Source of the DNA: Verrucomicrobiota bacterium
Lineage (GTDB): Bacteria > Verrucomicrobiota > Verrucomicrobiia > Limisphaerales > CANJXF01
Direction: 5' to 3'
Assembly: GCA_038214755.1 (NCBI GenBank)
Contig: JBBQRQ010000132.1
Span: 1-10,256 of the forward strand
DNA length: 10,256 nt
Shown here: piece after piece, positions 4,928-8,695 of the stretch
Layout of the letters: the number at the start of each line of letters is the position of its first letter
Position numbering within the stretch: the first letter of the stretch is position 1
Translations under genes and position numbers: made by a program
Notes under the pieces: generated by a model
Told to the model about the DNA's origin: nothing
Databases searched by the model: none
Seen by the model: the letters and a program-made list of their open reading frames with translations, nothing else

Positions 4928-5014
4928 CGTAGCGCAGGTTTGCAACCTGCGGGATGTCGCGATGCCCTGCCGGTTGCAAACCGGCGATACAGCAGCTTGC
5001 AAAGCTGCGCTACG
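4928..5014. repeat. GTAG-type REP-like element with three 17-nt hairpins
   Basis: Terminal inverted repeat CGTAGCGCAG...CTGCGCTACG; hairpins GCAGGTT-TGC-AACCTGC (4934-4950), GCCGGTT-GCA-AACCGGC (4969-4985) and GCAGCTT-GCA-AAGCTGC (4992-5008). Confidence 0.88.
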
Positions 5015-5152
5015 GCCCCTGCAATTCGGTTAAATTGAATATCACGAAATCTGAATCAGTCGATTAAGCAGGTCAATGAGTTGAAGAATTTGGAAAGAAT
5101 AATGAAGAGGAGTAGCTTAATAACAGCTTGGTTGAACCGGAAGGATTTCACT

Positions 5153-7384
5153 ATGAAAACTAATCTATTGCACCGGGTAGCATCTGCCTCTGGCGGGTGC
5201 GTGACGACTTTCTCTTTTCTCTCTAAAAAAACAAGCGACCCAATAAATCTTTTCGCACCCGTCAGAGGCAGATGCTACCCCGGATGGAGAGGGGCAGGCG
5301 CAATGATTGCCATTGCTCTCGGGCTGATGGGATGCGTGGATCAAACCAGCGGAACTGACACTCAAAATTCAGCGGAAATTCTGGCCGACCAGAACGCGCC
5401 CCCGCCCGCGTCTGCCAGCGAAGAAGAAATTCCTCCAGCCAGAGCGATCATCCCACCGGCCGATCTTTCTCCGGGCGTTGCGGAGGTCGTGAAATTGGCT
5501 CAATCAGGTGTCGGGGATGAAGTCGTTCTGGCTTATATCAATAAATCCGGACCCGCCTTCAATCCCTCCGTGGATGAAATTGTTTACTTAAAAGACCTCG
5601 GTCTTTCAGAGGCGGTTCTCACCTCGTTGGTCAGCCACAAAAATGCTGAGGGTGGAACAGCGGCCCCAATACCCGTGGCCGAAAATAAAACTCTTCCACA
5701 ACAGCCCACGCCTTCAAATCCCACCACTGCCAGCGCGCCATCCTATTCCGTGGCCGCCGCACCGGATTATACAGAACCGGTGACTGCTCCCGCCGCTCCT
5801 CAGCAGGTCAATATAAATTATTTTGAAAACACTTTGTCTCCGTACGGCAGTTGGGTGGATGTGGCGGACTACGGCCGCTGCTGGCAACCCACCGTCGTTC
5901 TCGTCAATCGCGGATGGCGTCCTTACTCCGACCGGGGACGATGGATTTATTCTTCTGCGGGATGGTACTGGCAGTCCGATTATTCGTGGGGCTGGGCGGC
6001 TTTTCATTATGGACGCTGGCACTCTGATGATCGGATTGGCTGGGTGTGGTCTCCCGGTTCTACTTGGAGTCCCGCGTGGGTAAGCTGGCGCTATAACGAC
6101 AATTATTGCGGATGGGCCCCGTTGCCGCCCGCCGCACACTTCGATGGGTTTGGATTCCGTTACCACAATGCGCATGTAGGAGTCGGCTTCGATTTTGGAC
6201 TGCGCGCCGATTTCTACACTTTTGTCCCGATTCACCATTTTGCCGATCGCGCGCCTCATCACTATTTCGTTCCCGGTGCTCAGGCAAAAACCATTTATCA
6301 AAACAGCGTCGTGAACAATTACTACATTCGCGGCAATAACAACACGGTGATCAACGAAGGCATCTCGCGCGATCGCGTTGCCAAAGCGAGCCGCACGCCA
6401 ATCCGCACAGTTGCGATTCGTGATCTGCCTGTCACCGGAAATCCCATTGGCCGGGCCGAGCGTTTGGAAGGAAATACTCTGGCTGTTTTTCGGCCGAATG
6501 TTTCAGCGAGCGCCGCAGCCACTCATTCGGCGGCCACACGTTCCTCTCGCACGTCGCCGCAGAACTCGGCGGCAATCACGGCGAGAACGCGCCAAAATGT
6601 TTCCCCGGAATCATCGCAAAATCTGGTGACCCGAACGCAACGCGGCAACAATTCCACTCCGGTGAAAACCGAAACGACCCCTTCATCGCCGCGTGAAACG
6701 ACCACGGCTCGCACGGTTGAAACGGCGACACCTCGCAGAGATTCTTCGACGCCTCAATCGCCCACGACATTTCCGCGCACCTGGTCGCAACCCTCGGGTG
6801 CGGTGAGAAATTCTTCCACCGTCGCTCCATCGCGCAGTGCGCCAACCGCACCGATTACCGCACCGGTGCAAGCTCCGAATTCTGCGCAGACTCGTTCCGC
6901 CAATACTCCTTCGAGCGTGGCACAACCCGTTCCCTCGGCGCTGAGAAATTTTCCGGCTCGACCAACGCCCGCACAAAACACGCCTTCTCAAGTCACAGAA
7001 AATTCTGCGCCGCATAATAATTTTGTCGCGCCATCGAGCGTTGTCCGCTCGGATTCACCGGCGCGAAATCAATCGGTGCGCCGCGATGTCGATGCAGCGG
7101 CTCCTCGCTCGTTGCGCTCGATGGGAACTGAGCGGCAGCAACCTGTCTTCAATGCGCCGGAAAATTTCAACAGAGGTTCTCAGGTGGAGAGGAGAAGTCC
7201 GGCGGTCGTTCAACCGGCTGCTCCGCGATCGATCTCACCCGCACCGCGAGCAATTTCACCTGCTCCCCAAGCGGCCGCGCCTGCCCCCCGAGCGGCCGCG
7301 CCCGACGCTCCACGCAGCCAATCCGCCCCGGCGGTGCGCGAACGAACTGATCGACCGGATAGAAACAGCCGCGACAAGAATTAA
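5153..7384 (+). CDS. DUF6600-like domain putative lipoprotein with long low-complexity C-terminal tail (743 aa)
   Basis: AAGGA RBS at 5141-5145 before ATG 5153; hydrophobic stretch plus lipobox LMG-C; helical module LSPGVAEVVKLAQSGVGDEVVLAYI...; Trp/Gly-rich LSPYGSW...WRPY...WGWAAFHYGRW...WSPAWVSWR...GWAPLPP (5819-6130) recognised as DUF6600-like; P/S/T/A/R-rich tail. Confidence 0.85.
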   Translation: MKTNLLHRVASASGGCVTTFSFLSKKTSDPINLFAPVRGRCYPGWRGAGAMIAIALGLMGCVDQTSGTDTQNSAEILADQNAPPPASASEEEIPPARAIIPPADLSPGVAEVVKLAQSGVGDEVVLAYINKSGPAFNPSVDEIVYLKDLGLSEAVLTSLVSHKNAEGGTAAPIPVAENKTLPQQPTPSNPTTASAPSYSVAAAPDYTEPVTAPAAPQQVNINYFENTLSPYGSWVDVADYGRCWQPTVVLVNRGWRPYSDRGRWIYSSAGWYWQSDYSWGWAAFHYGRWHSDDRIGWVWSPGSTWSPAWVSWRYNDNYCGWAPLPPAAHFDGFGFRYHNAHVGVGFDFGLRADFYTFVPIHHFADRAPHHYFVPGAQAKTIYQNSVVNNYYIRGNNNTVINEGISRDRVAKASRTPIRTVAIRDLPVTGNPIGRAERLEGNTLAVFRPNVSASAAATHSAATRSSRTSPQNSAAITARTRQNVSPESSQNLVTRTQRGNNSTPVKTETTPSSPRETTTARTVETATPRRDSSTPQSPTTFPRTWSQPSGAVRNSSTVAPSRSAPTAPITAPVQAPNSAQTRSANTPSSVAQPVPSALRNFPARPTPAQNTPSQVTENSAPHNNFVAPSSVVRSDSPARNQSVRRDVDAAAPRSLRSMGTERQQPVFNAPENFNRGSQVERRSPAVVQPAAPRSISPAPRAISPAPQAAAPAPRAAAPDAPRSQSAPAVRERTDRPDRNSRDKN
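5175..5280. mobile_element. REPIN-like inverted doublet inside the coding sequence
   Basis: GGGTAGCATCTGCCTCTGGCGGGTGCG (5175-5201) and CGCACCCGTCAGAGGCAGATGCTACCC (5254-5280) are reverse complements at 26/27 positions (the exception is a G-T wobble) around a 52-nt AT-rich loop; each arm is GTAG plus an imperfect hairpin. Confidence 0.82.
7220..7303 (+). repeat. Imperfect 21-nt coding tandem repeat x4
   Basis: Encodes APRSISP APRAISP APQAAAP APRAAAP. Confidence 0.8.
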
Positions 7385-7460
7385 AGGTTAGCGCCTTTTG
7401 GTTTCTTGGGCGGTTCTCGTGGGTCATAAATTTTTTTGGGATCGACTGGCTTCCCGGATT

Positions 7461-7625
7461 AAATCCGAAATCCGAAATCCGAAAGAAATCCGAAGCCCGA
7501 AGGCCGAAGACTGCGGAACTATGCGGATGGCAAAGCACTTTGCCGGGCGCTGGCGGCAAATCGTTTTCGATATTCGGATTTTCTTTCGGATTTCGGGGAT
7601 TCGGATTTCGGATTTCGCACTTCGG
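7461..7625. repeat. Inverted pair of (AAATCCG)n heptamer arrays
   Basis: Left arm AAATCCG x3-AAAG-AAATCCG-AAGCCCG-AAGGCCGAA (7461-7508); right arm TTCGATATTCGGATTTTCTTTCGGATTTCGGGGATTCGGATTTCGGATTTCGCACTTCGG (7566-7625) is the reverse-complement pattern, including the AAAG/CTTT interruption. Confidence 0.9.
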
Positions 7626-7683
7626 GTTAAGTTAGCTGATTCCAGTTGCGGGAGGAATTATTTGCGGCAAACGTCTTTTCGCG

Positions 7684-8423: not shown

Positions 8424-8487
8424 ACACGCTCGCACAAAAATGGTTCTTCGACATTTTCAGTGGAATAGAGGCCGGTTGTTCCCAAAA

Positions 8488-8585
8488 AGCGGTGGAGGGC
8501 CACCGCAGTCCAAGACGCTGTCGCGCGATTTGTGCACCATCGAAATTCGCGAGAGCGTCTTGGACTGCGGTGGCCCTCCACCGCT
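8488..8585. repeat. Long inverted repeat (REPIN-like doublet)
   Basis: Arms 8488-8525 and 8548-8585 are reverse complements at 37/38 positions with a 22-nt loop; each arm has an internal hairpin GCGGTGG-AGGG-CCACCGC. Confidence 0.92.
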
Positions 8586-8695
8586 CTTGTCACGGCGACC
8601 ACACAGCTCCGCCGACGGGGAGGGCGTCACTTCTGCGACCGGAACTTTACTCCGGGAATTTTTGGAAATGGGATCCATTCATTACCACACGCGGC

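Follow-up and report, generated by a model that had tools for sequence, protein, structure and literature searches.

The stretch of DNA analysed here, referred to as the window, comes from a Verrucomicrobiota genome, is 10,256 nucleotides long and carries a gene for a DUF6600 protein with a repeat element near its start (Table 1). The frame of this gene is open from ATG 5153 to position 7384, through the element, with no stop across the 743 codons. Its product, a singleton in clustering, begins with the features of a lipoprotein (SPase II) signal, namely a basic n-region, a hydrophobic core, and a lipobox ending in a conserved Cys, as such signals are defined in the portion of PMC9360617 considered here. 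The L-M-G-C of the window gene departs at position -2 from the L-A/S-G/A-C consensus, as do the L-L-G-C and F-L-G-C of its orthologs. The hydropathy of the core was within the ortholog range of 1.9-2.6. Residues 1-46 contain seven Lys/Arg and one Asp/Glu, and the insert adds basic residues. No second hydrophobic core is brought by the insert (best hydropathy 1.31). A second lipobox in the insert (Cys16) was considered and rejected, since no hydrophobic core lies ahead of Cys16.

Table 1. Features of the DUF6600 locus and further REP insertions in leader peptides of the same genome (C numbers, contigs; G numbers, genomes)
Feature	Position	Strand	Basis or comparison
SD-like motif AAGGATT; AAGGA ends 7 nt before the start	5141..5147	+	Sequence; same motif before the start of an insert-free homolog
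Host gene (743 aa) with DUF6600 domain (PF20245, residues 226-327) and a long tail rich in Pro/Ser/Arg	5153..7384	+	Pfam E 1.4e-33
Ancestral start with n-region codons 1-7	5153..5173	+	Homologous start in 8/8 same-genus orthologs
REP doublet (REPIN) of 108 nt, read as 36 extra n-region residues	5174..5281	+	36-column gap in all orthologs
Left REP arm: GTAG (5177-5180) followed by a 9-pair stem (two G-T) and 3-nt loop	5175..5201	+	DNA fold; column frequencies of 330 arms
A/T-rich spacer, common to a subfamily of ~106-nt doublets	5202..5253	.	Spacer comparison with 32 doublets
Right REP arm, inverted	5254..5280	-	Inverted-copy comparison
End of n-region (Gly-Trp-Arg), hydrophobic core, lipobox-like L-M-G-C, Cys61	5282..5335	+	Best 10-residue hydropathy 2.54
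Alternative start at an in-frame ATG past the element, disfavoured	5303..5305	+	Opening cost 13.1 kcal/mol
REP inserts in signals of two adjacent genes	C32:44172-44332, 46774-46919		Plain signals in G004; longer n-region for one gene in G002
REP insert in signal of a TolC-like gene	C12:33197-33307		3/3 orthologs plain
REP insert in signal of a gene on C36	C36:17531-17768		Five orthologs without the long insert
Single arm in a Tat-type signal	C4:44473-44499		Shared by G005, where it is degenerate with the internal ATG lost
Repeats in a prepilin-like leader	C20:617-715		In both G000 and G002

The initial annotation had described a GTAG-type inverted doublet with 27-bp arms at 5175-5280, and this was borne out: the two arms are inverted copies of each other with 26 of 27 bases identical. 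The RNA fold of this stretch had an energy of -63.1 kcal/mol (z = -9.2), and none of 200 shuffled sequences was equally stable. The arms span 106 nt and the net insert is 108 nt, so the ends of the element cannot be fixed to a single base. It lies after codon 7, within the n-region and ahead of its last three residues. When 5174-5281 was deleted by script, the conserved Cys moved from residue 61 to residue 25, in agreement with the unbroken frame and the shift that had been annotated.

Other repeats were seen around the host gene. A second GTAG REP doublet of a different family lies in the intergenic region upstream (4928-5014), and inverted heptamer-repeat arrays lie downstream (7454-7628). 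Similar heptamer arrays fill many REP spacers across the genome. Between a RibD-like gene and the trigger factor gene there is an inverted doublet (8485-8588) with 41-nt arms that are 95% complementary. A Cys-rich ORF of 196 amino acids at 1452-2042 on the minus strand had no Pfam match.

The element is absent from orthologs

Matches to the DUF6600 protein were obtained in 58 of the 61 genomes searched. All eight same-genus orthologs begin with M-K/N-T, lack the element, and have the Cys at residue 24. Residue 25 therefore holds for the window gene, in which one extra residue stands between Trp-Arg and the hydrophobic core, but not for its same-genus orthologs. The ortholog alignment proposed in the initial annotation gave a gap of exactly 36 columns at the element in all orthologs. 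An insert-free homolog (L083) reads M-K-T-N-L-L-R and then directly G-W-R, with the same AAGGATT ahead of its start. Of 29 ortholog loci fetched, one of them (L010) from an unpublished genome (G009), 25 had a Met-to-Cys leader of 22-30 residues, three had no such Cys, and one was a spurious match. Among 80 metagenome loci, 48 had leaders of 23-29 residues, 38 of these exactly 24; the other 32 were unmatched, being cut or without the Cys, and the search pattern could not match long leaders. By eye, no REP peptide was seen among the metagenome starts listed. The leader length is thus strongly conserved at about 24 residues across the order, and the 61 residues of the window gene are a real departure. 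On this sequence comparison, none of the orthologs examined has the element, which is thereby shown to have been inserted later.

The element belongs to a genome-wide GTAG family

A search with the arm found 330 occurrences within five mismatches in the genome, compared with none for three shuffled arms, so the arm is not unique to this site. These occurrences formed 129 inverted doublets and 72 unpaired arms. GTAG was conserved at 98% per column, and the window arms agreed with the consensus of the family in 26-27 of 27 bases. In like-sized doublets at unrelated sites, the spacer was at least 70% identical in 7 of 32 (best, 81%), and the shuffled maximum was 62.5%. This homology above the shuffled maximum indicates that the doublet moves as a whole. 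No fixed target-site duplication was found among the 129 doublets; the best signal was 18, where 9.5 would be expected (z 3.0 in one of 40 tests). The family had 317 matches in the window genome (G000, 5.1 Mb), 0-62 in eight congeners, and 14 in the unpublished genome, while the 51 genomes from other families had no match. Among the 61 genomes, the arm family is therefore confined to the genome's own family, and it is expanded in the window species.

The family thus combines a high-copy palindromic arm with a conserved GTAG 5' of a short stem-loop, mostly inverted hairpin doublets that spread together with their spacer, and a REP-associated tyrosine transposase (RAYT) flanked by the same REP. 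These results identify the element as a REPIN, a REP doublet whose GTAG family is spread through the genome. Together with the orthologs, the 330 arms support the initial annotation's proposal that a REPIN-type mobile element was inserted in frame into a signal peptide. The doublet lengths were nearly even modulo 3 (45/37/47), and we rejected the idea of a doublet designed for coding on this ground. In the frame of the window, 132 of 258 doublet orientations were free of stops. With such numbers, staying in frame needs no design.

Translation from the ancestral start is the most likely reading

The element lies wholly inside the ORF, is in frame, and is absent from orthologs. We computed the cost of opening the mRNA from -15 to +12 at ATG 5153, which was 6.8 kcal/mol with the element and 8.5 kcal/mol without it, and 4.4-8.2 kcal/mol in orthologs. 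No rate acceleration of the host gene was detected in 16 relative-rate tests (all chi2 < 2.2), which span the whole species branch and are blind to a recent loss of function. Since the start at ATG 5153 and its SD-like motif are preserved, with an accessibility like that in orthologs, ATG 5303 is buried, and no acceleration was found, the element is most likely translated as 36 n-region residues that are tolerated, with the ancestral start in use. A search for the 16S 3' end with one motif did not find it.

We therefore favor an in-frame REPIN insertion that is probably translated and cut off with the signal peptide, so that the mature protein is unchanged and the insertion is nearly neutral (probability about 0.7). 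The course of events may be as follows. The RAYT would have copied a REP doublet of the GTAG family through a single-stranded hairpin into the site after codon 7, as REPIN/RAYT biology suggests. Ribosomes are predicted still to initiate at ATG 5153. The 36 extra residues would then sit in a cytoplasmic n-region of 46 residues and be removed with the signal peptide. Sec, Lgt, and signal peptidase II would read the basic residues, core, and lipobox behind the insert. As all of these are intact, the insert should be close to neutral and at most lower expression. It would persist because the frame is kept and the stretch is disposable and unstructured, and not through a benefit to the host. Tolerance through cleavage of the signal peptide is thus plausible.

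A different outcome, which we consider unlikely, is that the insertion is recent and harmful, with the hairpin or the long n-region cutting expression or export in an allele that selection has yet to remove and that has yet to decay. The hairpin begins 18-22 nt past the start codon, at the edge of the initiation footprint. When the footprint was extended to +25, the cost rose to 17.3 against 11.2 kcal/mol, and lower expression is therefore possible. The near-consensus arms, the expansion of the family in the window species, and the conserved leader length in relatives also fit a recent and harmful event, and the element is known from a single genome and a single DNA run. However, the frame, core, and lipobox are intact, and another gene has kept an n-region peptide of REP origin in two species. 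The spacer is just 79-81% identical to its nearest siblings, which hints at age, although this divergence may predate the insertion. Dating by dN/dS gave no date, as synonymous sites were saturated. The closest homologs found were 61% (metagenomes) and 66% (genomes) identical, with no closer relative carrying a filled or an empty site.

The element would be 5' UTR if translation began behind the hairpin at ATG 5303, and we regard this as improbable. This in-frame ATG follows a G/A-rich stretch, with GGAGAGGGG 10-18 nt upstream, and PMC3733652 favors the untranslated reading for many N-terminal REPs. Its opening cost is nevertheless twice that of ATG 5153, and the product would have 10 residues before the Cys with no Lys or Arg among them, while the ancestral start retains its SD-like motif and an open frame. 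A downstream start, named in the initial annotation as a refutation of the coding insertion, is thus disfavored by computation. The right arm also holds GGAGG/AGAGG 3 nt before an ATG, which is out of frame in the window. Elsewhere, the corresponding ATG falls in frame in some genes, where it might serve as a new start.

The initial annotation had further raised excision as a switch, and it is very improbable that the element is retained for control, with excision or hairpin folding toggling the lipoprotein: precise loss would restore an ortholog-like signal, and low-frequency REPIN excision occurs in Pseudomonas reads, but in the portion of PMC3116915 considered these excisions are asymmetric and rare, the element is found in one species only, multiple-of-three lengths are not preferred, about half of the doublet orientations are stop-free, and both states keep the frame, which leaves little to switch. 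No joint of 5173 to 5282 was present in the contigs of the one DNA run in which this stretch occurs (probably the source sample), where rare variants are dropped, and nothing in the anatomy suggests excision.

Other in-frame REP insertions occur in the genome

The window REP family has 185 loci, five of which are in frame inside genes. The insert in a glycosyltransferase gene is absent from five of five orthologs. In a DUF1549/1553 protein, two orthologs lack the insert, G003 shares it, and in G007 the site is occupied by a different one. A heuristic scan covering 1013 loci from 27 palindromic families returned in-frame candidates, 84 rows of them internal, together with 12 C-terminal and 25 N-terminal candidates; one locus was counted twice, and the window locus was missed because it merged with its neighbor. 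The window genome has about 90 in-frame REP insertions, most of them putative. A single 27-nt arm was also seen in frame deep in a 1009-aa ORF (C106:7283-7309).

Besides the window locus, five ortholog-checked REP inserts were found in signal n-regions of this genome (Table 1, where the prepilin-like leader on C20 is listed in addition to these). In two of the five (C32:44172 and C4) the start is ambiguous, because an ATG within the arm is in frame. The heuristic scan added candidate prepilin-like cases at C60:4813 and C148:3982. By a rough rule, n-regions make up 0.7% of codons, and six signal cases compare with fewer than one expected. About 9 of 26 N-terminal candidates were leaders by eye, against 911 signal-like ORFs of 3134, and this comparison demonstrated no signal-specific enrichment over N-termini in general. 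We suggest tentatively that cleaved leaders (lipoprotein, Sec, Tat, and prepilin) may be a systematic safe harbour for REPINs, in which n-regions grow by 36-85 residues. If this is true, signal peptidases remove the peptide of the parasite, much like intron removal at the protein level.

Relation to known repeat systems

Insertions of this kind are already known. In 2013, Di Nocera, De Gregorio, and Rocco catalogued about 70 GTAG REPs lying inside genes of Opitutus terrae, as singles or dimers and in several cases N-terminal, according to the part of PMC3733652 considered here. These resemble the present element in being RAYT-linked GTAG hairpins, single or dimeric, in frame in verrucomicrobial ORFs and in some cases near the N-terminus. 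They belong to another REP sequence family, and the peptides of the window family were absent from the O. terrae rows compared. PMC3733652 discusses both readings, cautions that many REPs placed at N-termini are in fact not translated, and never uses the term 'signal peptide' in its main text. In contrast, the start and the signal core on either side of the present insert are both conserved in orthologs. Our literature search for REPs in signal peptides found no paper, with Additional file 3 of PMC3733652 covered in part 1 of 3.

The inverted REP doublet forming a long hairpin, the predominance of doublets, the conserved arms with a variable spacer, and the associated tyrosine transposase are as described in the sections of Bertels and Rainey 2011 (PMC3116915) considered. 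The GTAG followed directly by a short stem with a 3-nt loop resembles the group 3 REP of S. maltophilia, as presented in part of Corneloup et al. 2021 (PMC8266576). As far as those portions of the two papers go, their REPINs are extragenic, whereas the window element is intragenic, its stem has two G-T pairs, and the sole transposase with window arms lies in frame inside priA.

The initial annotation had drawn an analogy to Rickettsia palindromic elements (RPE). In the parts of PMC3733652 and PMC3184786 considered, these too are palindromic repeats in frame in coding sequences, N-termini included, and this side of the analogy holds. They differ in host and probably in sequence, and RPE-1 is longer, whereas the window element is of the GTAG type with a cognate RAYT. 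By analogy, it appears to work like an RPE and is not classed as one. The comparison understated the precedent, as GTAG REP singles and dimers had been catalogued in Verrucomicrobia, and this genome has many of its own. In-frame repeat fusions are reviewed in PMC3184786, and long fused proteins were discarded in PMC6006769, in the parts of both considered.

The lipoprotein insertion indicates no new mechanism. It is an unusually clean case, in which orthologs fix both the ancestral start and the empty site, and this answers the usual objection that REPs at N-termini reflect faulty annotation. If the element is translated, a lipoprotein signal of conserved length accepts 36 foreign residues, and predictors of signal peptides and start sites may miss exported proteins in REP-rich Verrucomicrobiota.

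The associated transposase is embedded in priA

The genome has 17 Y1_Tnp matches, one of which has window-type arms nearby. This arm-flanked domain (C88:19356-19942) passes NCBIfam NF047646 with 88.8 bits (cut-off 80). The RAYT (L051) lies in frame inside priA, just before Walker A, as a REP-RAYT-REP cassette. By analogy with the REPIN/RAYT biology set out in the parts of PMC3116915 and PMC8266576 considered, it probably mobilises the window REP family. The cassette within priA is more surprising than the lipoprotein insertion itself, and our literature search on RAYTs and REPINs in priA found no paper.

The priA orthologs (L064-L072) differ in what they carry. The RAYT type is the same in G003 and G005, though with other REPs, and a second RAYT type is present in G008 and G006. 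G007 carries just a REP doublet, and G001 next to nothing. The priA of the unpublished G009 has a RAYT with the REP family of the window. Y1 transposase domains associated with other REP families were also observed in frame in a 1440-aa UDPGP-family ORF (C33:16136-16378) and in a 970-aa helicase-like ORF (C64:10402-10626).
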